From the IMG/VR virus record IMGVR_UViG_3300010167_000003: 64,000 nucleotides of DNA. One strand, given 5' to 3'. Under the pieces are notes generated by a model that saw nothing but the letters and a program-made list of their open reading frames with translations, was not told the origin of the DNA and searched no databases. This document shows positions 8,941 through 61,947 of the stretch, piece after piece. The stretch comes from a virus. The position numbers and the translations under genes are program-made. How positions within the stretch are numbered: the first letter of the stretch is position 1; every line of letters starts with the position of its first letter.

Positions 8941-8958
8941 CACAAAATTAAAAAGTAG

Positions 8959-22928: not shown

Positions 22929-25900
22929 TTACCATGCTATACCCAAATGGCTGCCCAGGATGCGCACGCGCTGTTCCAGCATCCGTATCTTAGCGTTCAA
23001 TGCAGTGTAGTCAGCCGAGGTTGTGTTGGGTGTGCCTGAAGCCACACTCTGACCGTACTTGGAAACATCTATGCGAGTTGCGTCTGTGGAAATGTAAGGA
23101 TCGCCCGTCTCCGTAACCCAGTCCCAGAGCGACTTCTTGCCAAGGATTGCGCTGCGTCCGGCCCCACCGATGCCCCAGCTGATGATTACTGTGTCTCCGA
23201 CTCTCAGGTCATCGTCACTGGAGTTGTTGTAGGCTTCCACCACTGTATCAGATGTCAACAGCTTCACAAGATATCTGCCGTGCGCTCTGATTTGAACGAT
23301 GCGTCCCATACCGATGGCCGACTCAGCCTCAATCTGGTCAGCAGTCTTCTCTTGGATGAAATTCTTGCCGAAGTTAGTCAGCATCAAAGGTGCTGCCGCG
23401 TCAATGGTAACGGCCTCAATCATATTTATATACGCTGTGGCATCGTCAGTTACGTGGTAGCCATCACTTATCTTAGTTATGTAGAACTTGCCACTCGGAT
23501 TTATCCTGTACACCCTGTTGTTCACGGTGTCAGTCACGATTAAATCCCGAACTATATCCCTGATGGCGTGTACCGGCCTGAAGAACCTGTCAATGTAAAT
23601 CTTTCTCGCGCCTGGGTCGGGGAAGTTATGCAGCATCTCGGCGTCCTGCATAAAGTCAACACTCCACAGGTTTGGACCGAACTCAACCTCCATACCAAGC
23701 TCAGGATATTGTACGTGGCACAATGCCTCCACTGATATACCGTGCAAGGATGCCGGTGCGTTTGCTGAGGATACGTTGACCACCACAGCTTCTCTAAGCG
23801 ACTTCGAGTAGGTCATGGAACGGGGCATCGGTCTTGGGAACGCTGAGTAAGAAGCAATCAATGAACCGAACGCTGTCCTATCCCACTGTTGGCTGAAGTT
23901 CTGGTAAGCGTGGAGGCCGCTGTCTGTGAGCACCAGCACGATGCCGCAGTTCTGGTAGGAGTAGTCGCGTATGTACATGTCCCACACCTTCCAGGTGGCC
24001 GCACCGACACCCCACACAGGACCAAGCGGTACTGTAAAGATGGTGGTCTTCAAGAAGCAGTCGAAGCAGGACAGGCCAGCGGTGTGACCAACCCATAGGT
24101 ATCGTTTCTCCTCGTCCATAGCGCCGCACAACACTTGTCCAGGGAAGAAGTGATCTGACATACCAGACGCTATGCCGTAGTCGATGAAGTGGACCGACTG
24201 AGTTTCCCTCATGCCAACAATGGTTATCTCCTGCGTGAACAGGGCGTTGCCAACCGAACCGGCGTCCCACCTCAACACAAATGATGGTGATGCGTTGCCC
24301 AAGGTCTGCGCGAACCATATTGGATTCGCTGCCTTGTCTACTTCGATGAGTCGCGCCGGTGAGGGGTTGGTGCCAGACAGTTCACCGAGGCCGGAGCCTA
24401 TGAGAGTGTTATTGCCATACGTGGGGCAGGCGCAGGTTGGATTGATAATGCCCATCAGAGGCATGGAATTGAGCATGTTCGCCGGGTGAGTAACTATCCT
24501 CTCCTCCGGCGCACGGAAGGAGTTCTCCCAGGTGCGGAACATACCACCCGCCGCGCCGGTGGTCTCCTCTTTGATGTGAACGATGTCCCCCTCTTTAATG
24601 TGGGGCTTGCCGGTCGTCTCGAAGGTGTAAGAGGTGGCGGCGAAACTTGCGAGCATGTTGGCTATCTTACGAGCCACCTTGTAACAGTTGATGGCTGAGT
24701 TTTCCAGCCGCATCTCACGTTTACCGTAGGAGCCCATAGAAAGCTGGTCGGTTTCCTTGTAGAAGATTATGGTTGGGGCGAATTTACCGTAGGCTTTACC
24801 CCAAATCCTGATGTCCACCTGGGCTTCAGAGTACCTGAAGTTGTTGAGAATGTGTGTAACCGTCTGCATCTGGCCGATGTATAGTACGCGGAAGCCGAGG
24901 TAGTTCTGCTCCAACTTGTCCTCTAACCAGCGGAACTTCGAGTACCACGCAGGGTTCAATCCTCTGGACACCCAGAATCCCCAGCGGAGAATGCCGTCCC
25001 CATAATTTACTTTCGGCTTCTTGGGGTTTCTCGGCGGCGCGGACGACGGCCATGCTGGTTGCACTGACACTCGCCCGGACGCAAATACTCTGCTGTCATC
25101 AGGCTCACCGGTAACAGGTGTTGATGTTCGGGCGGTGTCTCCCACACCCTCCCGTATGCTATATATACAAACCGCTATGTATTTGTATAGGCGCGGCGCG
25201 AAGTCCTCTCTGCGCTCAAAGAAGTTCCACCACAAACCTGTATCTGTTACGGATACTTCTGTGTGGCTCCGGTCAACCAACATTTCATAGCCTACGGAAA
25301 GGAACCAGTCATCATCAGGCTCCACAGGTAGGCCAAATCCTCCCCTGTTGGTGAATCTTTTCTTGAGCAGGTACTCAGCCGAGTAGCCCATAACTTCATC
25401 CTCGCCGAAGCCCTCCACTGTGAACTGGTAAGACATGAATTTGGTATGGCGGCCACCCTCACGGTAGAAGTTGATGAGGTCGCGGTCGCCGAGTTCCGGT
25501 GTCTCCCAACCGAAGGACGTTACCCAGCAACCAGCGGGGAACGCTACGCCGGACGCGCCGGGGCGGGTCAGGTCCATGATGTACACCCAGCAATGTTGTC
25601 CGTCATCGTCATACCCGAACTTGGCATACTGCATGTTGCCCAACCGCTCATGCCACAGCCCAAGCGTGTGGTCCAAGCCTTTCATAATCTGCCAAGTAGC
25701 CGCTTGTGCTGCGTTGTGCTCAAGGTGGATTTCCTCACGGCGGATGCCGGTCACGCGGCCCTTCATGGTTTCCATAACTTTGGAGATGTTGCGGCCAATG
25801 CCGGAGCCGAAGTTCATAAGCAGCAAGAGAATACCCAACAAGATCATTGCTAACGCTATTATTGCTTGTTGGGCGGTTGTATTAGGGACTATATTTAGGA

Positions 25901-28900
25901 TACCAGCCGCTGTGCTTGATGGCGCTGGCATAGCGTTACCTTGTACACTCCCAGTCGCGTGAGAGTGTATTCCAGTGTGGGCCTTCCCAGGGTGCGCCTC
26001 GCTTCCTGTAGATATGACCCCAGCGAGCAATGGCCTTGGAGTGTTGATCTCTGTATTAAGCGTGGACATAGTTGACATAAGAGCTATACCAATCAAGATT
26101 AAAATGATGCCTATAATCGTGAACAGTTTTTTGAGCCGGTCCATCATGTCTCGGAACTCGTCTTCCATGTTCCCATAGAAGTTGTGGCCGAACGCCTCCA
26201 ACATAAGCTCATTCATCATTACCAGCTCGGCTGAAGAACGGAAGTCTATACCATCAGTGACAAGTTCAACAATGGTTACGTTGGGGTCTTGCGCGAGCTC
26301 ATAAAATCTGTCCCTCTTTATCAACCGTCGGTGGTTGCCTTCCCAGTCGTAGCCATAATCTGAGTTGAACTCTGGAAAGAATGTTAGCTGAATCCTACCA
26401 CCGCTGGTGTTGTTTCCGAGGTAAGGGTTACTTCCCCATCCTATTAGTGATTCTTCCGTATCAAGGGGGTCCCCTGTTGGGTTTCCTGTGGTCCCAGGGC
26501 CACTCACAACAGGATTGTCAGGGTCGAACGGGTTTGGGTTCCAATCATCCCCAGCTGTCACGTCTCCATCAACGATGTCACCGCCAACAGGGAACCCAAC
26601 GTGCATTCGACTCTCTGGTGTGTCTTGTCTATAATACCCACCTTTCCATGTCCAATAGACGCAGTTAGTGTCAGGGTCTGCACCCCAGGCGTGCCAGTTC
26701 TTCAGGGTCACGCTACCAGCTACATAGAGGCGTCCACTTTGTGACAACCTCATTAGTTCAATGAACATATCCATAGACGCCATCCAGATAAATGACATCC
26801 AGAAGTCCCCAGTCATCAGCACCGGGGTCTCAGATAGGGTAACGACTGGGTATTTAATTTCCGTCTGCCGTTGGCTTATCTGAATCCAGTAGGAACCAGC
26901 AGCTGGCATTGGCAGCACTGACGGGTATGGTAGGGACAAACCAAAGCTACCATCTGGTGTTACATTTGTTGGGTCGAGTGCACAGTTTACACACAGTATA
27001 TTGGGGTTCCACGCGGTAGGAGGCTGGTTTATTACCTGGATGCTGTCATAGTGCATCCACCAAACACCCCACGGCCCTGGTAGGCCGGGGTCGATAATCT
27101 CTACCTCAGCGCCAGTCGATGAGCACCTGAACTTCTTGATAGTAAGGTTCTTAGTGGCCTGAGCAAGAATGGCATAGTTAATCACAGTGGACAGTGCGAA
27201 GCTGTCACCAAACGGGGCGTTAGTGGCGCTACCCTGTTGTACATTGAACACTTTGACCCGGTACGCCCCTGCACTTGCGTCTGCTGGGCTCATCATCGGA
27301 GGTAGACCTACTGATGGAGGGATGGGGTCGTCGTTCTTTTCCCATCCGTATAGCACGTGAGCACCAGTAGGGATGAAGGGGGCGCTCGCACCGTTGTACA
27401 CCGACGTGAAGCTCTCCGGCACACCCTCAGAGACGAACGTGTATGTTATCTGACCGTTACCACTCACCAGGACATCGTAGCTGAATCTATCGGTCGGTAC
27501 GTTCTGTTGTTCTTCTTCATCCATCCAGTCATTGTTGATGTAATCCGGGAAGAACACCCTATTGCCACACCACTCTATCCACTCTCTATTAATGCTGCGC
27601 TCCTTACAAACAACTGTCATCGCTTTACCGAAGCGGTCGCGCAGCATGATGGGTTGTGTCTCGAAGTGCACAGCTTCTTCCAGCGCACCGTAGTAGTGCC
27701 ATCTGCGTCGGTTGCCAACTGGAGCCCAGTCAGCGGTGTTGGTGACAATAGGACAGCTGCCCTCCATAACGAGCTGCTTCTGATAACCATTTGAGAAGTT
27801 GGGATAGGCTATGCGCGTGTCGAACTGCGGGTTGTTCTCCGGGTTATTTCTGGCCTCCATAAAGAACTGGCCGCCAGGGTAGATCACCGGCGCTTGAATC
27901 ATGTGGTGGTAGATGTAGCCTGTGGATTCCATACTCACAAGGTGTGGGTATTGAATAGCCTGACCGTACAAGTCCTGGCCCTTGGCTATCTTGAGGTTTT
28001 CCACTACAGCTACAGCGGCGAAGGGATAAATAATGGCTGTCTCGTTAGCGGTCTGACCCACCACTGTGACTACGTTTATCACGTTGTCGTCGTTCATGTT
28101 CTCAGTTATGAGGGTGAGGTCGCGCTCCTCTTTGAAATAGAAAGCTGCGGGTGCGTCCGCACGTTTTATCGGGCGTACAAGCAACCGTCCATCGGTGTCG
28201 AACAGGACTTCATGGATGATGCTCTGAGCCAGCCGAGCTAAGACGTCCAGAGGGTGCTCCTCAATGAAGTTCGCAACCAGGAGCCGGTTGGCTATTTCAC
28301 AGTCGGGGTCAAGGTTTATCTCAAACTCCGGCCTGAAGGTAACTGTTCTGGTATACGTAAAGACGCTGCCGGTCCACACCTCTTGCACGGTTACGTGTTC
28401 GGCCAAGTCCTTCAGCCCCATGAGGTAACAGACGTCGATGATGATGTCCTTCACTGTCCAAGCCCTGGGTGCTTTGTACATGGTGCCGTCGGTGCGTATC
28501 TTCGTCCAGTCGAAGTGCCAGTTGTTGACGCCGAGGTACTCGGACTGCTCTGAATAAATGCCAGCGGAGATGGTATCTTCAATGAACATCTTAGCGCGGT
28601 CACGACACTGTATCTGAATGGTCGAACCGTCAGGCGTGGTCGTCATCGACACAGTATCAATGAACCCCTGGAATTTCTGAAGGTATTTATCGTCGTAGCC
28701 AAAGTACACAGACACCGGCACGTTGGCGGCCACCTTATGTTTGTTGGGGCCACTGTAACGGGTGTCAATATTCATGGCTGTTATGCTCACAGTGTTGGAG
28801 GCTACGTTGCGGCTCCGGTCCAGCTGAATGTTCAACACAGAAGCCAGCGCATACTTGTTGTCCAGGAGGACGAGCGCCGATGGCTTACGTTGATAGTTTG

Positions 28901-29006
28901 ACGTGGCGGAGCTTATGATGGTTGAATCAGGGACGGTAAGCAGATTGGCACGTAACCAATCTGGTAGCACCTCTTCAATGTGTATCTTCTGATAAATTGA
29001 CGGCAT
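22929..29006 (-). CDS. giant (2025 aa) virion protein with a baseplate-hub-like N-terminus, internal TM pair and OB-fold spike-like C-terminus
   Basis: Uninterrupted ORF with a good RBS. The N-terminal ...YFGYDDKYLQKFQGFIDTVSMTTTPDGSTIQIQCRDRAKMF resembles gpD/XkdQ-type hub proteins. There are two hydrophobic helices (about 25805-26140). The C-terminal GRIVQIRAHGRYLVKLL...LRVGDTVIISWG is gpV-like. Confidence 0.8.
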   Translation of the reverse strand: MPSIYQKIHIEEVLPDWLRANLLTVPDSTIISSATSNYQRKPSALVLLDNKYALASVLNIQLDRSRNVASNTVSITAMNIDTRYSGPNKHKVAANVPVSVYFGYDDKYLQKFQGFIDTVSMTTTPDGSTIQIQCRDRAKMFIEDTISAGIYSEQSEYLGVNNWHFDWTKIRTDGTMYKAPRAWTVKDIIIDVCYLMGLKDLAEHVTVQEVWTGSVFTYTRTVTFRPEFEINLDPDCEIANRLLVANFIEEHPLDVLARLAQSIIHEVLFDTDGRLLVRPIKRADAPAAFYFKEERDLTLITENMNDDNVINVVTVVGQTANETAIIYPFAAVAVVENLKIAKGQDLYGQAIQYPHLVSMESTGYIYHHMIQAPVIYPGGQFFMEARNNPENNPQFDTRIAYPNFSNGYQKQLVMEGSCPIVTNTADWAPVGNRRRWHYYGALEEAVHFETQPIMLRDRFGKAMTVVCKERSINREWIEWCGNRVFFPDYINNDWMDEEEQQNVPTDRFSYDVLVSGNGQITYTFVSEGVPESFTSVYNGASAPFIPTGAHVLYGWEKNDDPIPPSVGLPPMMSPADASAGAYRVKVFNVQQGSATNAPFGDSFALSTVINYAILAQATKNLTIKKFRCSSTGAEVEIIDPGLPGPWGVWWMHYDSIQVINQPPTAWNPNILCVNCALDPTNVTPDGSFGLSLPYPSVLPMPAAGSYWIQISQRQTEIKYPVVTLSETPVLMTGDFWMSFIWMASMDMFIELMRLSQSGRLYVAGSVTLKNWHAWGADPDTNCVYWTWKGGYYRQDTPESRMHVGFPVGGDIVDGDVTAGDDWNPNPFDPDNPVVSGPGTTGNPTGDPLDTEESLIGWGSNPYLGNNTSGGRIQLTFFPEFNSDYGYDWEGNHRRLIKRDRFYELAQDPNVTIVELVTDGIDFRSSAELVMMNELMLEAFGHNFYGNMEDEFRDMMDRLKKLFTIIGIILILIGIALMSTMSTLNTEINTPRPLLAGVISTGSEAHPGKAHTGIHSHATGSVQGNAMPAPSSTAAGILNIVPNTTAQQAIIALAMILLGILLLLMNFGSGIGRNISKVMETMKGRVTGIRREEIHLEHNAAQAATWQIMKGLDHTLGLWHERLGNMQYAKFGYDDDGQHCWVYIMDLTRPGASGVAFPAGCWVTSFGWETPELGDRDLINFYREGGRHTKFMSYQFTVEGFGEDEVMGYSAEYLLKKRFTNRGGFGLPVEPDDDWFLSVGYEMLVDRSHTEVSVTDTGLWWNFFERREDFAPRLYKYIAVCIYSIREGVGDTARTSTPVTGEPDDSRVFASGRVSVQPAWPSSAPPRNPKKPKVNYGDGILRWGFWVSRGLNPAWYSKFRWLEDKLEQNYLGFRVLYIGQMQTVTHILNNFRYSEAQVDIRIWGKAYGKFAPTIIFYKETDQLSMGSYGKREMRLENSAINCYKVARKIANMLASFAATSYTFETTGKPHIKEGDIVHIKEETTGAAGGMFRTWENSFRAPEERIVTHPANMLNSMPLMGIINPTCACPTYGNNTLIGSGLGELSGTNPSPARLIEVDKAANPIWFAQTLGNASPSFVLRWDAGSVGNALFTQEITIVGMRETQSVHFIDYGIASGMSDHFFPGQVLCGAMDEEKRYLWVGHTAGLSCFDCFLKTTIFTVPLGPVWGVGAATWKVWDMYIRDYSYQNCGIVLVLTDSGLHAYQNFSQQWDRTAFGSLIASYSAFPRPMPRSMTYSKSLREAVVVNVSSANAPASLHGISVEALCHVQYPELGMEVEFGPNLWSVDFMQDAEMLHNFPDPGARKIYIDRFFRPVHAIRDIVRDLIVTDTVNNRVYRINPSGKFYITKISDGYHVTDDATAYINMIEAVTIDAAAPLMLTNFGKNFIQEKTADQIEAESAIGMGRIVQIRAHGRYLVKLLTSDTVVEAYNNSSDDDLRVGDTVIISWGIGGAGRSAILGKKSLWDWVTETGDPYISTDATRIDVSKYGQSVASGTPNTTSADYTALNAKIRMLEQRVRILGSHLGIAW

Positions 29007-37179: not shown

Positions 37180-38265
37180 TTAGACTCCCGTTATACGGAC
37201 GAACCCATGTCCAGAGTTGCCGACTATGTTACCGGCTCCCCTTGGATTGGGCATGGAATTTCTACCGTCAATCATGATAGTTTCAGTGAACACAAGATTC
37301 GAGTAGTGAGTAGGGTTGTTTCTATGAGTACCGTCTTCATTTACAGCGTTGCACCCTGCATGGCCGGATATGAAAGACGAGCCACCGCCGCCGGTTACAG
37401 CCAAAGCGAAAACTCCCCCTATAGTAGCTGACGCATGGGCTCCACCACCGCCGCCATACCACCCCCCGCCGCCACCGGCGGCTATGAACGGACTGTTGAC
37501 TTGGTTGAAGTGACCGCCTCTTCCAAACACACCTGGGTTGCCATACGTTGTAGTTCCGAGTCTATTAACACCACCAGCGTTTTGCTTACCACCTATGTCG
37601 GTGTTGACAGTACAAAGAGTAGCGTTGTCTACTCCCGTGGGGGACCAGCCATAAGTGGAAATTACACCACCGTTTAAGTTTCCACCTACTCCACCATATC
37701 CTCCGGTGTTGGTGCCGTCAAAGTTGTAGTAAGACCCGCCACCGGCTCCGGCAACCATAATTCTGGAGCGTAGAGAGACAGCGTTATCCCACGCTCCACC
37801 GACTAATCGTATGTCTGTTGCCCCACCGCCAGAGCTAACCCTATTACCCCACCAAGACACGGTTCCACACATACCGCCACCGTTCCAGCCAACAGAATTA
37901 GCAGTATTGTTCCCTGCCTCGCCGACGTATATGTACAAAGTGACAGGCTGGGATAGTGTCAAGATGCCGGAGGTATAACCACCCTTTGCCATGATTGTTG
38001 TTCCAGCAGGTATACCTCCACGAGCACCCCAACACTCTATTCTGTATCTACCGGGTGGTAGGACCACCTCTCGTGGCGCTCCGGTGTAATCAAACTCAAC
38101 TGGCTCAAAAGGCGGGATAGTAACAGGAGGCCAAAACGTGTGAGCCACACCATTGGCCTCTATGTACCCGGCTTTTAATTTACGAGCTACACCGCCGACC
38201 TCGACGTACCCCGTCTTTAGTTGGCGTGCAACGCCGTTGACTTCTACGAGTGCACCCTTTGGCAT
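37180..38265 (-). CDS. glycine-rich-domain fibre protein
   Basis: N-terminal NGVARQLKTGYVEVGGVARKLKAGYIEANGVA repeats. These are followed by GARGG, GGYTSG, WNGGG, GGGATDIRL and AGAGGG blocks typical of the phage glycine-rich domain. Confidence 0.7.
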   Translation of the reverse strand: MPKGALVEVNGVARQLKTGYVEVGGVARKLKAGYIEANGVAHTFWPPVTIPPFEPVEFDYTGAPREVVLPPGRYRIECWGARGGIPAGTTIMAKGGYTSGILTLSQPVTLYIYVGEAGNNTANSVGWNGGGMCGTVSWWGNRVSSGGGATDIRLVGGAWDNAVSLRSRIMVAGAGGGSYYNFDGTNTGGYGGVGGNLNGGVISTYGWSPTGVDNATLCTVNTDIGGKQNAGGVNRLGTTTYGNPGVFGRGGHFNQVNSPFIAAGGGGGWYGGGGGAHASATIGGVFALAVTGGGGSSFISGHAGCNAVNEDGTHRNNPTHYSNLVFTETIMIDGRNSMPNPRGAGNIVGNSGHGFVRITGV

Positions 38266-50578: not shown

Positions 50579-51100
50579 CTACCACGGCTCATGCTCAAGG
50601 TTTTTGTAGTGGTCATTGATATTGTTCCAGGAAGTTTGCCGGAGAAATAGAACGTGTTCGCTCCAACCATAGGCGTCACCTTCGTTTATCTCCCGGTCAA
50701 TCTCCATAGCTTCTTTCACTATGCAAGCGCACATGCAGTGAAGATGTTGTGATAGGATACACAGCTCGTCAAAGCTATTTGCGAGCTTGTGTATGCAGTC
50801 ATGGAGCCACCATAAATGTTCCTTCAGCGCCACAAAGTATTCTTTGTATGAGGTGAAGTTTGGGACATTCAGGGGCTTTTCTGTGGGGTGTAATTCGATC
50901 TTCAAGAGGTCCATTGCCAAGGTCTGGATAGACTGCCGGAACTCATGGCACATGTTAGCCTCATGTCTATTCCTACGCTTCTCGCCCTGAAGGTTCATGG
51001 CCTGTGCTTTCAGCTTGACGATACTCTTCCATCGCCGCGCTGTGTCCAAGCAATCAATAAGTTGTTGAAATATGGGAGCCCAGGTGTCCTTCGCCGCCAT
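50579..51100 (-). CDS. hypothetical His/Cys-containing helical protein
   Basis: 173 aa. RBS AGAGGTGG. Confidence 0.6.
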   Translation of the reverse strand: MAAKDTWAPIFQQLIDCLDTARRWKSIVKLKAQAMNLQGEKRRNRHEANMCHEFRQSIQTLAMDLLKIELHPTEKPLNVPNFTSYKEYFVALKEHLWWLHDCIHKLANSFDELCILSQHLHCMCACIVKEAMEIDREINEGDAYGWSEHVLFLRQTSWNNINDHYKNLEHEPW

Positions 51101-51655: not shown

Positions 51656-52447
51656 CTACGCATAGTCCGATCTACGCTGCCAATCCCTTGACAGGACGAA
51701 GACCCCTCGGTTGTTGTAAAAGAGAACGAAGCGGTTTTGGTACGGAAGGCCAGTGCCCGGCACTTTGTACTCGCCGGTTGCAAAGTTCTTGCCGTTGGCG
51801 ATTTGTCCGTGCAGGTCCAGGGAAACAGGAACCAAAACACTCTTCTCTTTGCGCTCGAAGCCGACGAAATTCTGGGCGGGGAACGCAGGGTCGGCGGGGA
51901 TTCCGCCTCTGCCGAGGTGCCCGTGTGTCACGAGTCTCCCGTCACCATGCCCATGTTCGCCAAGACGTTCGGTTACGATGCGCTCGTGACCTTCGCCGCT
52001 GGTAGGCTCCATCGGGCCGCCCTCGCAGAAAATCTCATGGACGGTTTTGGTCCAATCAAGACCAACCTCTCCACGATGGAATCCGCATGGTTCAACCAAA
52101 ATGAAGGTGTTAAGCGGCCACGCCTCATAAGGGGTTTCCCTATTGATTTGAAGCGTGTAGTAAGTGTCGTAATCGAGGCAGCGTGTCTCGGCACGAATGA
52201 TGAACGACTTCTTCTCCTCGACCAGAACGACGGGGCGGGGGACGCAGCACTCATCCTTGCGGAATCCTTTTCTGACGAACTCGTCAGTGTGGATTATTAG
52301 CCTAGAGGTGTCCAACCGCTCCATCTTCTTTCTCTCCGGTGCAGGCCAGCGATAGAAATTAAAATTGCAACCGCCTACACAACCGCATCCGCAACTGCAA
52401 CCACCATCTAAACGGTGGCTTGGCCCAGGTCCATATACGTTGTACAT
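51656..52447 (-). CDS. hypothetical protein with N-terminal GGCSCGCGCVGGC cluster and HGHGDG/HGH patch
   Basis: 263 aa. RBS AGGAGG. Confidence 0.65.
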   Translation of the reverse strand: MYNVYGPGPSHRLDGGCSCGCGCVGGCNFNFYRWPAPERKKMERLDTSRLIIHTDEFVRKGFRKDECCVPRPVVLVEEKKSFIIRAETRCLDYDTYYTLQINRETPYEAWPLNTFILVEPCGFHRGEVGLDWTKTVHEIFCEGGPMEPTSGEGHERIVTERLGEHGHGDGRLVTHGHLGRGGIPADPAFPAQNFVGFERKEKSVLVPVSLDLHGQIANGKNFATGEYKVPGTGLPYQNRFVLFYNNRGVFVLSRDWQRRSDYA

Positions 52448-52575: not shown

Positions 52576-52866
52576 CTAGTGCCGGAGGCGGACGCCCACT
52601 ATCGGCCCATCAGGGCACTCGAAGTGGTAAAGTGATTCGTCAACGTGGTCGCAGAAGTTCCTGACGAAGCAGCAAATATGGTTGTAGTCCTCACAAAGCT
52701 CAGCGATGGTGTGGATGAACGCGGTGTCCTCTTCGCATTTGAGGTCAACACAATGGCTATGTGCGTTAAGGCAGTCGGCCAACGCTTCACCCAGGTTGTG
52801 GATGAAGTCCTTCATCCTGACTACCTCTTGTTCCCTGTGGTATTCCTTGCGATGCACTGCCCACAC
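52576..52866 (-). CDS. small Cys/His-rich protein
   Basis: About 80-96 aa. Several candidate starts (GTG 52866/52857, ATG 52815). Confidence 0.5.
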   Translation of the reverse strand: MWAVHRKEYHREQEVVRMKDFIHNLGEALADCLNAHSHCVDLKCEEDTAFIHTIAELCEDYNHICCFVRNFCDHVDESLYHFECPDGPIVGVRLRH

Positions 52867-53859: not shown

Positions 53860-54464
53860 TCGGCACCGTCCCCTTCCTTCAGGTGTTTAGGGGTCCGTTT
53901 AGTGGTGGGCTGCTCTGGCTGGGGGACGGGCTGCTTTGGTGTAAGCATCTCCATGATCTGGCTAAGCTGGTTCTCGATATGATTTACCTTGCCAACCACA
54001 TCCAACGTCGCGTTAAAGTCGAACGCTGACGCTTGCGGTTCTGGCTCTGGTACTACCGGTGGTACTACTGGCATAGGTTGTTTGGCAAAGGATGCTGTGG
54101 CTTGCACCATCTCAGGCACTTTGGCGTTGTACCAAAGCAGGTGAATCTCCATAGAATCCATGTCGTAGAAGATAAATTTCTTGCCCTCTCCAACCAGCTG
54201 CCAGTGTGGAACCTTGTAGTTCCACGCTTCCTCCGCACTCTTTACCGGTATGAATATTGGCGTTTGCGGAGAAACAGGCGTGCTATTACTCTGAGCAGAT
54301 ACGGCCCCAGGATAGTTAGGACGGGCAGAATTAGGTGGCTGAATGGCATTTAACCTCTCCTCCAATTCTTGTTGACGTACATCCATGCGCTGCATGAAGT
54401 CATAGATGTCGTAGTACGACGATTGACGATGTGACATTGAGCTCCCTCCTCCGAAAAAAGACAA
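53856..54464 (-). CDS. hypothetical protein with Pro-rich segments
   Basis: 202 aa. Very strong RBS (GGAGGAGGGAG). First gene of the operon. Confidence 0.65.
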   Translation of the reverse strand: MSFFGGGSSMSHRQSSYYDIYDFMQRMDVRQQELEERLNAIQPPNSARPNYPGAVSAQSNSTPVSPQTPIFIPVKSAEEAWNYKVPHWQLVGEGKKFIFYDMDSMEIHLLWYNAKVPEMVQATASFAKQPMPVVPPVVPEPEPQASAFDFNATLDVVGKVNHIENQLSQIMEMLTPKQPVPQPEQPTTKRTPKHLKEGDGAE

Positions 54465-54586
54465 AGTGACATGTGTACACGTGGCTAGACGCCAGTGTTA
54501 CCAATGACTTATTCAGTTATTTGTATTTGGGAGACTCCATTGATGTGATAAACCCTGCGAGAATCACAGAACTCTATGTACGCATA

Positions 54587-54615
54587 TTGAAAATGTTGTG
54601 AGGTTCTGCTATCAT
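54587..54615 (+). promoter_or_regulatory. plus-strand promoter inside the minus-strand arm
   Basis: TTGAAA (54587-54592), a 17-nt spacer, then TATCAT (54610-54615) with a TGC extension. Confidence 0.5.
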
Positions 54616-54656
54616 GCCTATGACATCTCCTGCCGGGGGAGTCTCGTAATACAGGT

Positions 54657-54682
54657 GTGAGGGGGTTGCGGAACCCCCTCAC
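54657..54682. terminator. strong 11-bp-stem hairpin shared by convergent transcripts
   Basis: GTGAGGGGGTT-GCGG-AACCCCCTCAC. There is a T-rich tail on the + side only. Confidence 0.6.
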
Positions 54683-54683
54683 A

Positions 54684-54806
54684 TCATTTCTTAGGCGGCC
54701 CTATACAATGCAAGCCACCACGCATGTTTAAGTTTCTGACAATATTAAGTGCTATCAACAGAGGTGTTGGGACAAATGAATGACTATTGGATGTGAACTT
54801 TGACAT
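54684..54806 (-). CDS. 40-aa peptide (MSKFTSNSHSFVPTPLLIALNIVRNLNMRGGLHCIGPPKK)
   Basis: AGGAGG (54816-54821) lies 9 nt upstream of the ATG. The stop abuts the hairpin. An own extended -10 element lies upstream. Confidence 0.45.
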   Translation of the reverse strand: MSKFTSNSHSFVPTPLLIALNIVRNLNMRGGLHCIGPPKK

Positions 54807-54887
54807 GCCAAACAACCTCCTGCCTTGAGACCTCACAAGCGAAGTGACTCGCTTGGCGGATTTCGGCCTCTGAAAACAGTATAACAT

Positions 54888-54896
54888 GAAATGTCA
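54888..54896 (-). promoter_or_regulatory. extended -10 element (TGTTATACT) for the small peptide gene
   Basis: Reverse complement of 54888-54896. The -35 is poor. Confidence 0.35.
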
Positions 54897-54999
54897 ACCT
54901 AATGAGTAAATTTGGTTGACACGACAAAATCCACGGATGTAAATATATCAACGCTACTTGGAAATATGGGTGTAAGACTCAATAGAGGATGTTGTCAGA

Positions 55000-57234
55000 C
55001 TAGAATGACTTGGTGTATGTGGTGCGTAAGAGCACAGGTTTCGGGTGCTCTTGAGAGGCGGGGCACGTCACTGTCACGTTAAATGTCACGGATGCACCGA
55101 AAGCTAGGCTGGGGATGGACACAGGGTTATCCCACAGGCTCACGAACTGGTAGTACGGGAAGTCCCAGTCGGGGTGCACGGTGATGAGCACATTCTCCAA
55201 CGTCATACGCATCCGGTCGTTGTTGGTTATCGTAACCTGGACGGTCTTTGGTACATAAGCAACAACCATCCCCACAACAATATCCTGCCCTCTACCAATC
55301 TCATTGCCTTGGAACCGGCTTACATACTCATGGGAAGTAACTTCGTACTTCCAGTTGCGGTTCGTGGAGACGGTACGGCCAATACCATGCGTCTCCGACA
55401 TGGACAGGGCAAGACTATACTCAGCCGCTGTGAACGGCTGGTAAGGAATCCTCATGGTGGACGGGTTTATCTTTACAACAGCGGGGTCCAGGAAGGTAGC
55501 CCCGTTGCTGAGCCCAGTAATCGTATATGTTTCTATCAATCGTCTAGTTTGATAATCCTCACCATCCAACATGGCTACATCATCTTGAAGGAGCCACGGT
55601 AAATGTGAGGAGCCGTACCACTGTAAGAAGCGGAACAGCGGCCACTCAGCTCTGGCAGAGTTCGACTCGGCATCTCTGCCAAGTGGCACCTTACCCCACA
55701 GCAAAGGTGATAACGGGATGTCCTTTCTCATCTTCGAGAAGGTAACATCAATCTCGTTGCCTACCGACAACATGCCATTGATTATGAAGTTGGGGTCATA
55801 TTTTGTAGACCGGCCAATATGTGAGGAGGCCACGTGGGTTACACCATCCACCTCGCCGGTATTCACATCGAGTACCACAATACTGCTGATTAAAACAGGG
55901 TGTTGTAATAGGGTACGGCACCACACTCTGTCGATCTCATGGTAATCACCCTGCGCAACCCATTCACCTTTCTTACACCGGCAGCACTTGCAACGTCGGC
56001 AGCACTTGCAGCAATCACATTCTTCACAGTGGGTACACTCCACCTCACCCTCCTCATTTTCGTGGGCGTGTGTGCAGCACGGCTTATCCTGACTGTTACA
56101 ACACACGCAAAAGTGTACGTCCTTATCATCGTGTTCGTCACACCTGCAACAGCAGCCACAGAGTATCGGTTCCTCATCCGGGTCAAGAGGTGGGATGGTG
56201 TCGTCATACTCCGGGCAATGTTTACAGCAGTTTTCACAATCGAAGCAGGGGCAGTCCTCACACCACTTCTCAAATTTGTACGCTGGCATATAATGCTTCT
56301 GCTCGGTGCACTCACATGGTTGCACGCAGCCACAAACTAGGCACACCATAACACCTTGGTATAAGTCCTTACACCAGCCCCAGTGTTGCTGCCACTCCCA
56401 CCGGCGGTCATACCTCCACCATTCACCTTCGAGGTATGACATGGGGGCGTCATAATCCTCTATCCACTGTTGCCTGTGGCTCTTGGTCGGTGGATCACTC
56501 TCTTTGTCTACCGTTTCCGTGGTCACATGCACGAAGATTTCCTTCTGCCAGTTCAACCACTGGCCGACCAAGAGTTCATTGGCTGTGGCAATCTTGTCAA
56601 TCCAGGTGGTCATGAACTCTTCACGCGGTGTGAAGTCCCACTGATGGGTATGGAATACTCCGATGGGTTGCAGGTGGTTTATCCCTATAACCAACTTCGT
56701 GCCTACCCGTGCAAAGACTGGTGGGTACTTGTAATAAGAAGGCCCGATGGGAATGTTTTCGTACTTGTCGATCACCATACCCGCCGTCTTGAATCGGTCC
56801 GGCACTAACAGGTGCGCTATGGTGGCCGCCTCACGGGGCCATTCGATTTCAATGTGGTCCCGCAGCGGTTTATGCGCTGATGGAATATGTATGGGACAAG
56901 ATGGTCTCCATGTAAACTCCCCGGTTGTGCAGTTAAACGCCACACGCTCGATAAGCACACGCCCCCATTTGTTGTGCATGAGGACATAGACCTCTGACCA
57001 GTCATCGGAGAGTTGAATACCAGCGCAGTACGCGCCGATTCCATGATGGCTTATTGAGAATAGGATGTGGGTGTTCTTAACCGCGCCGTCCTCCACGTAA
57101 CTCAGGTGTACTGGTCGGCCAGAAGCAATGATGAATCTGCGATCATCAAGACAGGCTATACCAGCATGGGGACCGACAAATGCCATGTCCCCATGCTGAA
57201 TAATTTCTTGTTCCTGTCCTGTGATCCAGCGCAC
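55000..57234 (-). CDS. 744-aa virion-type protein with central cysteine-cluster insert
   Basis: Long ORF. Residues encoded by about 55975-56343 contain about 33 Cys in about 120 aa (hand count). Confidence 0.75.
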   Translation of the reverse strand: MRWITGQEQEIIQHGDMAFVGPHAGIACLDDRRFIIASGRPVHLSYVEDGAVKNTHILFSISHHGIGAYCAGIQLSDDWSEVYVLMHNKWGRVLIERVAFNCTTGEFTWRPSCPIHIPSAHKPLRDHIEIEWPREAATIAHLLVPDRFKTAGMVIDKYENIPIGPSYYKYPPVFARVGTKLVIGINHLQPIGVFHTHQWDFTPREEFMTTWIDKIATANELLVGQWLNWQKEIFVHVTTETVDKESDPPTKSHRQQWIEDYDAPMSYLEGEWWRYDRRWEWQQHWGWCKDLYQGVMVCLVCGCVQPCECTEQKHYMPAYKFEKWCEDCPCFDCENCCKHCPEYDDTIPPLDPDEEPILCGCCCRCDEHDDKDVHFCVCCNSQDKPCCTHAHENEEGEVECTHCEECDCCKCCRRCKCCRCKKGEWVAQGDYHEIDRVWCRTLLQHPVLISSIVVLDVNTGEVDGVTHVASSHIGRSTKYDPNFIINGMLSVGNEIDVTFSKMRKDIPLSPLLWGKVPLGRDAESNSARAEWPLFRFLQWYGSSHLPWLLQDDVAMLDGEDYQTRRLIETYTITGLSNGATFLDPAVVKINPSTMRIPYQPFTAAEYSLALSMSETHGIGRTVSTNRNWKYEVTSHEYVSRFQGNEIGRGQDIVVGMVVAYVPKTVQVTITNNDRMRMTLENVLITVHPDWDFPYYQFVSLWDNPVSIPSLAFGASVTFNVTVTCPASQEHPKPVLLRTTYTKSF

Positions 57235-57236
57235 AC

Positions 57237-60200
57237 TTACACCCTATATGCGAAGAAACTTGTGACTCTAAGGAACTTTGCGTTTATGTAAAGGTTGACT
57301 GCATCTACCACTTCATACTCAGGCTCTACCTTGATGTAGAACTTTGCCTGTTCTCCTGGCCGGATATACGCACTGAGTTCAATTTGCTTGAACCACGGGC
57401 CATCCTTGTCGAGTCCAAGCCACAGCATCTGTGAGTGCTCCAGAACATCCGGCGGCGGTACAAACAACCTGACGCGGGACACCACATCCCTGAGCAGGTT
57501 GTTACGGACGAAGGCCAAGCGTATGAGCGTCCTGCCATATGATGCGTTCTGGATATCAATGGAGCTGGAGAACGGTGTGGGTGGCAGGCCATCCCCTATA
57601 CAGATGTGCATAAAGGGGTGTGCAGAGTGAACAGCCTGTCCCTGGAACGGGTAACTGGCGAACAGATACTCTCGTGCTACTCCTACGTTGTGGTTATATA
57701 TCGCTGCAAACGGGAACTGCTCAAGACCCCATGTTTCAACGGATGATGTCATCGGATTGATAAGCACTGGCCCGGTGTATCCCATATGATTGGCGATAAG
57801 CTGAGCAGATATGCTTGCAAGAGAGGTAAGTGTTGGAAGTTCCCCTCTGGCTTTCATTGGTAGTGCAGCGGACACCGGCAGCGGCCACGTTGCTTGATTA
57901 CCATTCTCATGCTGACCGTACATGTACTTCGCGTACTCCCCGACGGCATTCCTATCCTGCCAGTACAGGGTGTCGTAATCCATTTGTCGCGCCGGGAGCC
58001 CCCAGTAGAAGCGGAAGTTGCCGTTGCTTGCCATGTGTATGACCTCTGGCACCGAACCCTCGATGACATCCATGCGGTACATAGCCATCATCCAGCCTGC
58101 GCCGGTCATGTTAGCCACGTTGTTGGGTGGGATTAACGGGTCACGTACAGTATTTGTAGGCTGCGCGTGATAACGGAAGCCAAGCACATAAATATACGGG
58201 AACATGACAGCGATACCACGCGGCCAATTCACATCGGGGTTCCATATGTGCTGCCTTTGATTAAACGGCACGTTGGGCAGCAGGGGAAGCTGCGCCACGC
58301 TGTCTCTGGTCAGGTTAAAGTTGAAATCATCACGCAGCAGTATGATTGTCAGCGGGGATAACGTAGCCGATGGCTGCCATTTAGCGTCCTCTGGGTTAAG
58401 GCGCACGTATAGGGCCAGTGTGTTTGTCTTTACCCCATCCTCGTAGCGTATTTCTGTAAACTGTGCTAATCCAAGGACTTCCTGGATTGTCCCATAAGGA
58501 CAGGACCAGAGAGGTATCGTGCGTATAGTACGGGCCACCTTCTCAACGATACTCTCGTCGGCTGACATTATGACTTCCAGTATGTATATAGTATTGAGTT
58601 CAGCGGAGGCCACAGCGATGACCCAGGCTTCGTCATATATAGACCAGAAGGGTGCCGTTACAGCCAAATCGTCAACGTAGCAGAGCGCCTGACCATTCTC
58701 AGGCACTGTAACCATCGTTGGGCTGACCGCCCTCTTAGCATAGCCAACCAAAGGTACACGAGGGTCGTCTACCAGCAGTCGCGTAAAGATATTTAGCTGA
58801 GTGGGTACTACACCCATTGCAGGGCCATATGATTCAACCACATTCCATACCCTCGAAATAGGATGGCTTGGGCTGTAAGGCATGTGGTTTCGTACTGAGC
58901 GATACCAATTATATTTACCTATAATGGCTGTAATGATGTTCAGCCCTATATATGGCACCATCGTGGAGTTCGACACCGGATATCCAACGATATCTGTGGA
59001 TTCAAACTGAGGGTTCACCGCATTTAGAGCCCCACGAGTCTGCACGTACCGGCGGAACGGTTTGAACTTGTATGTTCCTGCGGGAGTACCAGCAGGAAGT
59101 AGGCCAGTCAATACCAGCGTCATGTTGCACATTATGGGAATCGCTGTCGGGTTTCCAGAAGTGGTCTCCTCACCAAATGTAAGGTCACTTTGAGGGTTCC
59201 ACCACCAACCCCGGAGTGTGCTCGTAGTACGCCAAACAGAGACCCAATAACTACCGCTGCCATTTCTATTGGACCATGTTACTCTGTACCCATCATCCCA
59301 TGTGCGCGTATCCCGGTAGAAATTGAACCCCCACCAGTCTTTGGAAAAATCACCAATCGGGTTGAGTAAATCCCCATCGTGCAAACCTGGGCTAGAGGTT
59401 ATGTTACGTGGAATCATACTCCCCTGACCAGCGGAGTTTGTGGTCTCCTGCCACTCATCAATGGGAGGCATTGTTACGATTAAATTGATATCAGCGTTGG
59501 GGGATTGCGTGTGGAGCATACTGACACGTCTACCACAGCGGTACACCTGCATCGGGGTGTAACAATGATACGCTGCCATCATTGGCAACGCCAGCGGTGT
59601 GGTTTGTACATTAACAAAGAACGCGCCCTCCACCGGGTAGGGATATAGCATGTTCAGATCAGTAAGTGGGCCTATCCCATTTTCCGGCCACGTCTGGGCT
59701 ATTTGTACATCGGCAGCGGTGATGGGAATGCACGCACCCACCGGCGCGGAACGCACCTCAAATCGCAGCGAATCCCTAAACCTTGCTATAAATTCAGTGC
59801 AGTCCAGAAGCTCCCGTACCTTTACAGTGCGCTTAATATCGTTGGGGTTCTGCACGAATCTGTGCTTTGTCATAATTCCAGAAGCCGCGCTGCTCCAGGG
59901 TAAAACGGCGGGTTGATTCACGTCTCGTACAAAAATACCCACACCAACCGACGTTGTACTTGTTTCATAAGCAGCGGAGTATATTTCCCTCTGTTCCTGC
60001 ACCATAGTATGAATGGTCTGCCATTGTGGGTAGCTCCGTAGGGTTGGGAACGGATTTGTGAACCAGGGCTCAGGTAATTGGCCGCCTATCGTAGTCGTAT
60101 CACTGTGCAATGTCATAGACGGGGCTTCCAACGCGGAGCGTTCGGCTCCAGTAACGAGGTAACAGCCGCCAGACCTTGTTATCTTGGCTTCTGTTTTTAC

Positions 60201-60818
60201 TTTGACCAGCCCTACTACTGCGCCTTCCGGCATCTCTGATTCAGTACCAAATTCACCAAACGATGTCAGCGAGCCATGCTTGGGGTTCGTTACGGGGGTC
60301 ATAAAGAAGGTGTCTTCGTCTAAGTCGTTCAGGACTACTATCTCATACTCTGTCAGCGATTCCTGGTTAATCCTGATGTCATCCGGCACCATGTGCTGTG
60401 TTATTGATGGTAGCTCATCAGGAGCTGTACGGCTTCCAATGTAATTTATCGGGATATTGTCAATCACCATACTACCAAGGTTCATTCCTTCACCAGACAT
60501 CGTGGGGGAGAGGGACTCATACTTCTTATTGAGGAATGTCATAGGCAGGCGCACCCCTACCACATCTTTTGTCTGACGGAAAATTACCTCTCCATCAAGC
60601 TCTGCCCTGTTGTAGTCCGCCGCTGTGTATAGCCACACAGGGTTCATCTCATCAATAGGAAACGCAAAGAGGTTTTCCATTTTATATACATAGGCAGACG
60701 GGGCCATGAAGACAGTGCCGGAGACTGTGGGGAGTATCACCTCACGGGCATCCTCCACGTCAAGCACTTCCACTCTCGATATTCGCATCAGATCATCAGT
60801 AGGGTTGCCAACCGACAT
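57237..60818 (-). CDS. 1193-aa hypothetical structural protein
   Basis: Uninterrupted ORF. RBS GGGAGG. No recognisable motif. Confidence 0.75.
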   Translation of the reverse strand: MSVGNPTDDLMRISRVEVLDVEDAREVILPTVSGTVFMAPSAYVYKMENLFAFPIDEMNPVWLYTAADYNRAELDGEVIFRQTKDVVGVRLPMTFLNKKYESLSPTMSGEGMNLGSMVIDNIPINYIGSRTAPDELPSITQHMVPDDIRINQESLTEYEIVVLNDLDEDTFFMTPVTNPKHGSLTSFGEFGTESEMPEGAVVGLVKVKTEAKITRSGGCYLVTGAERSALEAPSMTLHSDTTTIGGQLPEPWFTNPFPTLRSYPQWQTIHTMVQEQREIYSAAYETSTTSVGVGIFVRDVNQPAVLPWSSAASGIMTKHRFVQNPNDIKRTVKVRELLDCTEFIARFRDSLRFEVRSAPVGACIPITAADVQIAQTWPENGIGPLTDLNMLYPYPVEGAFFVNVQTTPLALPMMAAYHCYTPMQVYRCGRRVSMLHTQSPNADINLIVTMPPIDEWQETTNSAGQGSMIPRNITSSPGLHDGDLLNPIGDFSKDWWGFNFYRDTRTWDDGYRVTWSNRNGSGSYWVSVWRTTSTLRGWWWNPQSDLTFGEETTSGNPTAIPIMCNMTLVLTGLLPAGTPAGTYKFKPFRRYVQTRGALNAVNPQFESTDIVGYPVSNSTMVPYIGLNIITAIIGKYNWYRSVRNHMPYSPSHPISRVWNVVESYGPAMGVVPTQLNIFTRLLVDDPRVPLVGYAKRAVSPTMVTVPENGQALCYVDDLAVTAPFWSIYDEAWVIAVASAELNTIYILEVIMSADESIVEKVARTIRTIPLWSCPYGTIQEVLGLAQFTEIRYEDGVKTNTLALYVRLNPEDAKWQPSATLSPLTIILLRDDFNFNLTRDSVAQLPLLPNVPFNQRQHIWNPDVNWPRGIAVMFPYIYVLGFRYHAQPTNTVRDPLIPPNNVANMTGAGWMMAMYRMDVIEGSVPEVIHMASNGNFRFYWGLPARQMDYDTLYWQDRNAVGEYAKYMYGQHENGNQATWPLPVSAALPMKARGELPTLTSLASISAQLIANHMGYTGPVLINPMTSSVETWGLEQFPFAAIYNHNVGVAREYLFASYPFQGQAVHSAHPFMHICIGDGLPPTPFSSSIDIQNASYGRTLIRLAFVRNNLLRDVVSRVRLFVPPPDVLEHSQMLWLGLDKDGPWFKQIELSAYIRPGEQAKFYIKVEPEYEVVDAVNLYINAKFLRVTSFFAYRV

Positions 60819-60838
60819 TAACTTTTCCTCCCTCTCTC

Positions 60839-61369
60839 TTACAAGAAACTCTCTATGTCATCTCCGACGTAGAAGAACCGGAGTTGCCATGATTTTATAA
60901 GTCTATGCCGAAGACCTCTAAGCACCGTTTCACGCGGGGCGTCGGCGAAGCGCACCTTGTACACGTGGCCGTCTGGCTCCCGTAGAATCAAGTAGTCACG
61001 ACGTATTGGCATGAAATCAGTTGGGAACGTCGCAGGTGCTTCAGGGTTATTCGTATAGTATAGCCGTCGGAGGATGTCTCCGTGGTCAATCACAATACCT
61101 TCCTTAGCTTTCACTGTCCGGCGTGTGATAGCCACCACGTCGATGGTCTTGGTGGAGTATCTTGGCAGCGAGTGCTGGATGGCAACACCTTTCAACAGCT
61201 GGAGGCGGTTCAGCCGCGCCGGATGCTCAAAGTCAGGAAAGAATGAGTCGGCTATGAACTCGCATACTTCCTCCCGTTCCCCGGTCGCGCCGGTTGTACC
61301 CGTCAATGTGTGATACTTGATGGGTCGATTCGTCCAGTCACCGTCTATCATATATGGAGTTACGGGCAT
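60839..61369 (-). CDS. hypothetical protein
   Basis: 176 aa. RBS GGAGGTGGGAG. Confidence 0.65.
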   Translation of the reverse strand: MPVTPYMIDGDWTNRPIKYHTLTGTTGATGEREEVCEFIADSFFPDFEHPARLNRLQLLKGVAIQHSLPRYSTKTIDVVAITRRTVKAKEGIVIDHGDILRRLYYTNNPEAPATFPTDFMPIRRDYLILREPDGHVYKVRFADAPRETVLRGLRHRLIKSWQLRFFYVGDDIESFL

Positions 61370-61947
61370 TCTCCCACCTCCAGTCCCCAGGCATCCCAGC
61401 CTTTGAACCGCTCTCTGGCAAAAAGTTCTATGCGCGGGGCGTAAGAAACTTTCTCAATCATATCGCGCATTTCATCAGGTTTGCGGCTATGTTCTGTTCG
61501 CGGTGCTATAAATCCGGTCAAGCCCTGCTGCCGTTTACCGTTCACCGTTTTATATGGCAGCCGCTGTGGGGTGGAACCGAACAAACAGTGCTCGGTAAGG
61601 CCCCTGAAATACTGTCCCAGACCGGCTTTGCCTTCTTTCATCCAAGTGATGCAAGTCACGTATTGGAAACCCCAGGCTTCCATTACTAAGAGGGCGTCCA
61701 TAAGAAAGTTATTGGTCGCCCACAGATAAAGGTGGCATCCCTCTGGGTGTATCAGCGCCTGTACGGGGAGTTCCATTATGTCCTGCGTTTTCATCAAGGC
61801 ATAATGGCGGTCGGCCCCGCGCTTTACCTTACCTCCACCGCTCTCCATCCAAGGAGGGTCGGCGAGGATGGTCTTATAGTGCTCAGCTTTTCCAATCGTG
61901 TTACTCATCAAAGACATCCTGTGCCTTGTTCCAGAACATCGTAGCAT
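61360..61947 (-). CDS. MT-A70-family N6-adenine methyltransferase
   Basis: ILADPPWM (DPPW catalytic motif), then LYLWATN and GFQYVTCITWMK. The start is probably internal (ATG 61917 or 61908). Confidence 0.8.
   Translation of the reverse strand: MLRCSGTRHRMSLMSNTIGKAEHYKTILADPPWMESGGGKVKRGADRHYALMKTQDIMELPVQALIHPEGCHLYLWATNNFLMDALLVMEAWGFQYVTCITWMKEGKAGLGQYFRGLTEHCLFGSTPQRLPYKTVNGKRQQGLTGFIAPRTEHSRKPDEMRDMIEKVSYAPRIELFARERFKGWDAWGLEVGECP

Follow-up and report, generated by a model that had tools for sequence, protein, structure and literature searches.

A cysteine-rich insertion in a putative tail protein of a large uncultivated phage

Some phage tail proteins hold single metal sites, such as the His/Cys sites of spikes and fibres. 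Metallothioneins, in the operational definition of Kagi and Binz, are small proteins (<~10 kDa) that contain about 15–35% cysteine in CxC, CC and CxxC arrangements, have few aromatic residues or histidines, are related to a metallothionein family and form metal–thiolate clusters; examples include bacterial SmtA/BmtA, mycobacterial MymT and eukaryotic MT1/2. In lambda gpL and its homologues, four cysteines (C173, C182, C205 and C212 in gpL) bind a [4Fe–4S] cluster that faces outwards from the tail tip; in lambda this metal site has no known role (Tam et al. 2013, as cited in PMC10721106). Here we analyse a 64,000-nucleotide (nt) stretch of DNA, the window, from IMG/VR virus record IMGVR_UViG_3300010167_000003. 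One of its genes encodes a protein of 744 amino acids (aa) that is interrupted by a segment of metallothionein-like cysteine density. Within the open-access library, we found no description in the literature of a metallothionein-like or cysteine-rich segment in a phage virion protein.

A cysteine-rich segment in a 744-aa protein

The source phage is uncultivated and has a genome contig of 169 kb. The open reading frame (ORF) for the 744-aa protein starts with GTG, 3 nt past the stop of an upstream gene for a 1193-aa protein, and is uninterrupted over its length; paralogy with the 1193-aa protein was looked for and none was found. A reading of the sequence alone (hereafter the sequence-only reading) had put about 33 cysteines in about 120 residues, between ordinary, cysteine-poor domains, and counting bears this out: residues 298–420 (window 55975–56343) contain 33 cysteines in 123 aa (26.8%), and the remaining 621 residues contain seven (1.1%). 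The CxC, CC, CCC and CxxC runs that it described, interspersed with His, Asp and Glu, are present as 10 CxC, 8 CxxC and 8 CC spacings, including one CCC run, and all five strings that it quoted occur in the protein. The same residues hold 7 His, 28 Asp/Glu and 12 Lys/Arg, making the segment very acidic, as well as seven aromatic residues (3 Tyr, 3 Phe and 1 Trp). When delimited more fully from C288, the segment has 34 cysteines in 133 residues (288–420), and these fall into three dense clusters of 12–13, 10 and 11 cysteines with acidic spacers between them. At a background of 1.7% cysteine, the mean of a crude ORF set of the whole window, the binomial probability of at least 33 cysteines in 123 residues is ~8e-30.

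The DNA that encodes the segment is not simple-repeat DNA and is not repeat debris. Its cysteine codons are mixed (19 TGC and 14 TGT), and it does not consist of tandem copies of a short unit. Tandem Repeats Finder returned one weak array with a 9-nt period (score 31), the only clear DNA repeat is a short tandem duplication (Table 1), and pairwise alignment of four cysteine clusters gave no score above those of composition-matched shuffles. The guanine–cytosine (GC) content, overall and by codon position, is equal inside the segment and in the rest of the gene, on which ground we rejected an insertion of foreign DNA. An intein or homing-endonuclease insert was also rejected on reading the sequence, in which no such motifs were seen, although no dedicated test was made.

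The reading frame of the segment is secure because family-conserved sequence lies in-frame on both sides of it and a conserved linker lies in-frame in the middle. An identical 744-aa protein is encoded on three contigs from ENA and Logan, one of which is an ENA metagenome contig of 169,394 bp (ERZ27257304, k141_5678574). A further contig, from JGI/IMG and 5 bp longer (169,399 bp), has a gene call for residues 453–744 only, a 292-aa C-terminal fragment; this possibly reflects a frameshift upstream, maybe inside the cysteine-rich region, or merely a different gene call. The cluster of the protein at 90% contains the 744-aa form (ENA and Logan) and the 292-aa fragment and nothing else. Three other ORFs of 93–147 aa, without independent support, are open over the segment (window 55890–56340) on both strands, including a hydrophobic 133-aa antisense ORF in codon register. 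An antisense gene was rejected on reading the sequence: the insert is poor in Leu and Ser codons, so that few antisense stops arise and the frames stay open.

Insertions into a rare protein family

An exhaustive HMMER search (phmmer) of 1.84 billion representative proteins yielded 17 matches, comprising the fragment from the window phage itself and 16 relatives (P0002–P0017) with E values from 1.8e-70 to 2.3e-4. The relatives are metagenomic proteins of 540–1220 aa with 20–40% identity to the window protein. Their contigs range from 27 to 53% GC, and the family is therefore spread over phages of diverse hosts. One member (P0006, locus L010) is from sample SRR27833601, a metagenome from a study of the microbiome of fungus-farming termites (PMC11302087). 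The family is rare and unannotated. The 744-aa protein has no match in Pfam, PHROGs or NCBIfam, and PHROGs searched with all 17 family members gave no significant match, one member reaching an unnamed family at E=0.0038. Word-seeded protein searches, whether with the entire protein, with the alignment of the family or with just the insert, recovered only the fragment from the window phage. Among the cultured phages of INPHARED there was no match by megablast (positions 54000–62000) or by tblastn (744-aa and 2025-aa proteins), and pattern scans of IMG/VR, JGI metagenomes and GTDB genomes revealed no closer relatives.

Alignments define a common architecture, consisting of an N-terminal beta-rich domain of ~220 aa, a Trp strand (xEGEWW), a variable site, a central domain with the signature HPVxxSSxVxxDxxTGxxEGxxHIG and a C-terminal beta-sandwich with DIxVGxV, YPYY and DPKPV. 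The window protein has the N-terminal domain, the WW strand, the central domain and the sandwich (alignments A1 and A2), and its central and C-terminal part carries HPVxxSSxVxxDxxTGxxEG, DIxVGxV, YPYY and DPKPV; Pfam gives a weak hint of NPCBM_assoc (Ig-like) in the C-terminal part. Relatives vary by other modules. C-type lectin domains are present in P0012 and P0014 (Pfam Lectin_C, 6e-11 and 1e-23), and in P0012 a short CSAKCNCGENCNC motif directly precedes the lectin insert. P0016 has an N-terminal extension with HExxH (HECGH) and repeated Ig-like segments, fused to the C-terminal sandwich of the family.

At the variable site, P0002, P0003, P0004 and P0006 have a knuckle with four aligned cysteines (C-x5-C-x2-CG-x4-C), followed by a linker of the form PxW...GxPxL. 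C288, C298, C301 and C307 of the window protein align with these cysteines, and its knuckle has C303 and C309 in addition, as does that of P0004. P0007, P0008, P0009 and P0017 have lost the knuckle and have no cysteine at the site. Cysteine-rich insertions are absent from every relative, including the closest, P0002 (40% identity), and by these alignments the segment is an insertion relative to the family and, as far as the family sequences go, a singleton confined to one genome. The sequence-only reading had described the whole cluster as inserted, which holds for most of it: relatives have 0 to ~50 residues at the site and none has a cysteine-rich expansion, but the first three cysteines of the interval belong, with C288, to the family-conserved knuckle. 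The expansion is also bipartite, as two insertions, A (34 aa) and B (70 aa), are parted by a family-conserved linker (Table 1). Together they contribute 28 cysteines in 104 residues. Insertion A includes CFDCENCCKHCP (residues 330–341; 56212–56247), which fits the ferredoxin-type pattern CxxCxxCxxxCP.

An AlphaFold2 (AF2) model on a 17-sequence alignment had a mean predicted local distance difference test (pLDDT) score of 71.6 and a predicted template modelling (pTM) score of 0.66, with confident N-terminal, central and C-terminal domains and a pLDDT below 50 at residues 232–264 and 284–427; single-sequence AF2 of the protein was of no use (pLDDT 34). Foldseek with the AF2 model found no significant match in the PDB or BFVD. 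Weak likenesses were to WD40 and integrin-alpha propeller blades for the N-terminal domain and to Ig-like sandwiches for the C terminus. In the model, the insert sits between two long predicted strands (273–283 and 429–456), a placement that suggests a loop excursion.

Table 1. Positions in the window of the 744-aa protein gene, its parts and the associated tail gene
Feature	Position	Strand	Basis
2025-aa tail protein	22929..29006	minus	39-52% identity to ORFs in L002, L007, L012, L013, L014
Gene for the 744-aa tail-module family protein	55000..57234	minus	ORF; N terminus aligns from residue 1 with P0003 and P0006
N-terminal beta-rich domain, residues 1-217	56584..57234	minus	Alignment A1, kept in full-length relatives; AF2 pLDDT mostly 80-93
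First lineage-specific insertion, Cys-free, residues 218-255, extends helix	56470..56583	minus	Absent from ~590-aa relatives (A1); low pLDDT at 232-264
Conserved Trp-rich strand MSYLEGEWWRYDRRWEWQQHWGW, residues 265-287, with family 'WW' motif	56374..56442	minus	Alignments; predicted strand 273-283
Ancestral Cys knuckle CKDLYQGVMVCLVCGCVQPCEC, residues 288-309	56308..56373	minus	Alignments A1, A3
Cys-rich insertion A, residues 310-343, 7 Cys, this genome only	56206..56307	minus	Gap in all relatives
Family-conserved acidic, Pro-rich linker DDTIPPLDPDEEPIL, residues 344-358, Cys-free	56161..56205	minus	Aligns with KKMRPVWDAHGNPIL, GKKVPMWNPDGSPYL, DVLVPLFEGDKP of relatives
Cys-rich insertion B, residues 359-428, 21 Cys, this genome only	55951..56160	minus	Gap in all relatives; pLDDT <50
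Tandem 18-nt duplication (CGGCAGCACTTGCA twice) encoding KCCRRC / KCCRCK	55979..56010	.	Repeat finder; only clear DNA repeat in insert
Central domain and C-terminal beta-sandwich, residues 429-744	55000..55950	minus	Best conserved part of family; pLDDT 75-93

Tail-module context

Judged by its gene content, the window is part of a large tailed phage. It encodes ThyX, an ATP-dependent DNA ligase and an MT-A70 methyltransferase. Tail-fibre genes of the collagen-like and tail-collar types lie in a 43-kb same-strand block that also encodes a beta-helix protein and several giant proteins. The best conserved gene common to the window and the relatives (39–52% identity over up to ~2000 aa) encodes a 2025-aa protein, the N terminus of which matches phrog_1887 (‘tail protein’, 1e-13). 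It is a giant, conserved tail-tip protein without a match in Pfam or the PDB.

In five independent loci (L002, L007, L012, L013 and L014), the family gene sits two genes downstream of the homologue of the 2025-aa protein. The gene order in L014 is a tape measure (PF10145 and phrog_58), a 1873-aa homologue of the 2025-aa protein (phrog_1887), an 845-aa protein and the family member. The 845-aa protein matches ‘virion structural protein’ and ‘tail fiber protein’ PHROGs and has an ALK_LTK_GRD glycine-rich domain. In this one locus the tape measure gene directly precedes the homologue, and a tail-tip module follows downstream of it. The window itself departs from this order: there, the 744-aa gene has been displaced to ~26 kb from the 2025-aa gene, still in one same-strand block. 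Hidden Markov models of the 345-, 450-, 713- and 438-aa module genes of the relatives matched none of the window ORFs.

The sequence-only reading had called the 744-aa protein virion-type, and the call gains support, of an indirect kind, from the domain company of the family and from synteny in relatives, in which the tape measure, the giant tail protein, a tail-fibre-like protein and the family member occur together. The C-type lectin inserts of family members also fit an exposed virion protein. Plausibly, the 744-aa protein is a virion (tail) protein of a tail-tip or baseplate module.

A candidate metal–thiolate domain

As the insert matches nothing in the profile libraries and structure databases, arguments about its function must draw on chemistry and context. 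The reading that we favour, at somewhat short of an even chance, is that the insert is a multinuclear metal–thiolate domain, a lineage-specific elaboration of an ancestral site in which four cysteines bound a metal. Runs of CxC, CC and CxxC are typical of metal–thiolate clusters, and the density and spacing spectrum of the insert (CxC, CC, CCC and CxxC, in three clusters of 10–13 cysteines) match those of such proteins. The insertions also extend the conserved CxxCG knuckle, which is itself likely to be a single metal site. Phage proteins assemble in reducing cytoplasm, a setting in which metal ligation is favoured above disulfides while the protein folds. The cysteines are too dense for classical zinc-finger arrays and awkward for defined disulfide knots; adjacent cysteines are seldom disulfide-bonded to each other.

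In the mechanism that we propose, the 744-aa protein would fold in the reducing cytoplasm of the host, where the cluster thiolates, with some of the histidines, would chelate several d10 metal ions, most likely Zn(II) and possibly Cu(I). With about three thiolates per divalent ion, as is usual, the load would be ~10 ions. Stapled by metal, the insert, otherwise unstructured, would form a compact excursion on the tail protein and would build on the probable single metal site of the ancestral knuckle. The cysteine density, the insertion, the conserved knuckle and the tail-module context are established here, and we infer metal binding, the identity and number of the metals and any role in the virion.

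The insert resembles metallothioneins in several ways. Cysteine makes up ~27% of it (33 of 123 aa), CxC, CC and CxxC spacings dominate, the cysteines lie in separate clusters of 10–13, the size of metallothionein alpha and beta domains, and no fold is predicted in the absence of metal. In contrast to metallothioneins, it is not small and free-standing but internal to a tail-module protein with conserved domains on both sides; it is very acidic (28 Asp/Glu versus 12 Lys/Arg), it is not poor in aromatic residues and histidines, and it is similar to no metallothionein family in Pfam. By analogy, the insert may work as a metallothionein domain does, with putative metal clusters, without being a member of the class.

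The closest parallel from a tail tip is gpL. Proteins of the gpL type share with the family a place in the tail-tip module and a conserved set of four cysteines, to which the ancestral knuckle would be the analogous feature. They differ in that homology to the window protein is not detectable (PHROGs), in the spacing of the cysteines (C-x5/9-C-x2-C-x5-C in the family knuckle against C173, C182, C205 and C212 in gpL), in the restriction of the knuckle to part of the family and in the number of cysteines at the site, 34 in the window protein rather than four. The feature might be likened to a putative cysteine-ligated metal site in a tail-tip-module protein, hugely expanded.

Several observations weigh against a metal–thiolate domain. 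Its seven aromatic residues and seven histidines, and its embedding in a large protein, are unlike classical metallothioneins. AF2 confidence falls below a pLDDT of 50 across residues 284–427, and the site varies from 0 to ~50 aa across relatives, as in a tolerant loop. The insert has no homologue in any search made, including one with insertion B alone, and conservation thus gives no functional support. It matched no Pfam model at E<=10, including metallothionein, Fer4 and zinc-finger models, no NCBIfam model at E<=1 and no PDB sequence at E<=10; PDB sequence searches with the family profile and with the 2025-aa and 1193-aa proteins were likewise negative. It is synteny in relatives that suggests the presence of the 744-aa protein in virions, and in the window its gene is displaced from the tail module, adjoining the orphan 1193-aa gene and lying near a methyltransferase gene.

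A bolder form of the metal–thiolate proposal is doubtful: that a tail-tip or baseplate protein displays a metallothionein-like multinuclear domain of ~10 Zn, Cu or Fe ions, born de novo from a four-cysteine knuckle, and that this domain makes the virion sensitive to metal or redox state (for example, as a staple that alters the conformation or stability of the tail when it is oxidised or loses its metal). If true, no virion protein before it would have had a metallothionein-like domain, and the birth of a metal-cluster domain de novo could be traced. Should the insert bind metals at all, it would extend the single metal sites of phage tail proteins, such as the gpL Fe–S site, to a multinuclear thiolate domain, and would reveal a route to such a domain from a four-cysteine knuckle of which the ancestral state is still present in relatives. 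It would also be a virion-displayed module, one that could be useful for metal capture by phages and for understanding how virions stay stable in habitats that are reducing or rich in metals. Either way, an unannotated family that is conserved in the tail module of uncultivated large phages has been identified.

Alternative explanations

The rival that survives best, although we regard it as rather unlikely, is that the insert is tolerated filler, a recent lineage-specific expansion of a permissive surface loop that has no specific function and whose metal or disulfide chemistry is incidental. It is a singleton at a site of 0 to ~50 aa, the closest relative lacks it, and its pLDDT is below 50. 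The 18-nt tandem duplication attests to local expansion that is still under way, and the cysteine-free insertion at residues 218–255 shows that the lineage gathers insertions. The sequence-only reading had itself named hypervariable low-complexity filler as the finding that would overturn a metal-binding function. The first half of that description fits, since site length is hypervariable among homologues and the insert is a singleton, and therefore conservation cannot vouch for function; the second half does not, as the insert is not simple low-complexity repeat DNA. Neutral evolution would have difficulty in placing 28 added cysteines within 104 inserted residues, cysteine being rare (1.7% background) and reactive. 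There are no internal repeats beyond composition, and the codon composition matches that of the gene, hence the insert is not a fresh product of slippage. If filler is nevertheless correct, the insert is a striking case of compositional drift in a permissive loop of a tail protein.

An iron–sulfur domain, with one or more [4Fe–4S] or [2Fe–2S] clusters on subsets of the cysteines as in tail-tip proteins of the lambda gpL type, strikes us as improbable. The ferredoxin-type match in insertion A is found in only 1.5–3.6% of composition-preserving shuffles, in a test that was post hoc; without the Pro, the pattern arises in 40–46% of them. Compared with a 4Fe–4S ferredoxin-type domain, the insert has this one motif match and no Fer4 profile match, and no other Fe–S model in Pfam matched even at E<=10. 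The four-cysteine [4Fe–4S] cluster outside the lambda tail tip, as presented in PMC10721106, sets a precedent, but gpL has no detectable relation to the family. At least one relative is from the termite microbiome study, and that habitat may be anoxic. The density of cysteines, with CC and CCC runs, is well above what Fe–S proteins need.

We consider it quite improbable that the insert is a disulfide knot or cross-linker, the thiols of which stay reduced during assembly and oxidise after lysis into disulfides within or between subunits, hardening the tail once it is outside the cell. Disulfide cross-linking of this kind is known from the cysteine-rich envelope proteins of chlamydial elementary bodies and from keratin-associated proteins, and both the high cysteine density in a protein that would end up outside the cell and the supported tail-module context are consistent with such a role. 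However, the cytoplasm, where virions assemble, has no oxidative folding machinery, the many adjacent CC and CCC pairs fit defined knots poorly, the flanking virion-type proteins are cysteine-poor, so that obvious cross-link partners are lacking, and some of the relatives, at least, may come from anoxic habitats.

An artefact of mis-assembly, frameshift or wrong-frame simple-sequence DNA that gives an apparent poly-Cys protein is very unlikely and nearly refuted, given complex DNA that is not a trinucleotide repeat, an uninterrupted ORF with family sequence in-frame before, within and after the insert and an identical protein on three contigs, even though only the C-terminal 292 aa were called on the JGI/IMG contig and a scan of IMG/VR for DNA encoding CCxCCxxCxCC returned more than 120 loci, nearly all of which, other than this one, are simple TGY repeats in short ORFs and most likely in the wrong frame. 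That scan says nothing about comparable proteins.

Other features of the locus

The sequence-only reading had also noted that several neighbouring proteins are rich in Cys and His. This applies to three small orphan ORFs on the minus strand between the 744-aa gene and the tail-fibre genes, which are moderately Cys/His-rich (3.8–8.3% Cys), but not to the large neighbouring proteins, which contain 0.2–1.2% Cys. The ORF at 52576–52866 encodes 96 aa with 8.3% Cys and 10.4% His (8 Cys and 10 His), that at 50579–51100 encodes 173 aa with 4.0% Cys and 6.4% His (7 Cys and 11 His), and that at 51656–52447 encodes 263 aa with 3.8% Cys and an N-terminal GGCSCGCGCVGGC motif. None of the three matched a family in Pfam or NCBIfam.

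Immediately downstream of the 744-aa gene is a 535-bp gap without a convincing ORF (54465–54999). It contains a strong GC-rich hairpin with a 14-bp stem at 54654–54685 (GGTGTGAGGGGGTT-GCGG-AACCCCCTCACATC), with a T-run on the plus strand only, and the region has no match in Rfam. The hairpin may be a terminator or mark an operon boundary between the 744-aa gene and the genes downstream of it.

A gene for an MT-A70 family DNA methyltransferase (1.5e-26; 61360–61947, minus strand) lies inside the late tail-gene block, three genes upstream of the 744-aa gene. An ALK/LTK glycine-rich domain (PF12810, 8.7e-50) occurs in a 361-aa protein (37180–38265, minus strand) encoded beside a collagen-like tail fibre gene; in L012 and L014, the same domain is present as an insert in the ~845-aa gene immediately upstream of the family member. 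Elsewhere in the window, at 8887–10164, two ORFs of ~400 aa overlap almost wholly on opposite strands. The minus-strand ORF (5% Cys) is probably spurious, and the plus-strand ORF (8959–10164) encodes three He_PIG Ig domains (8.6e-26) and hence is a real gene.

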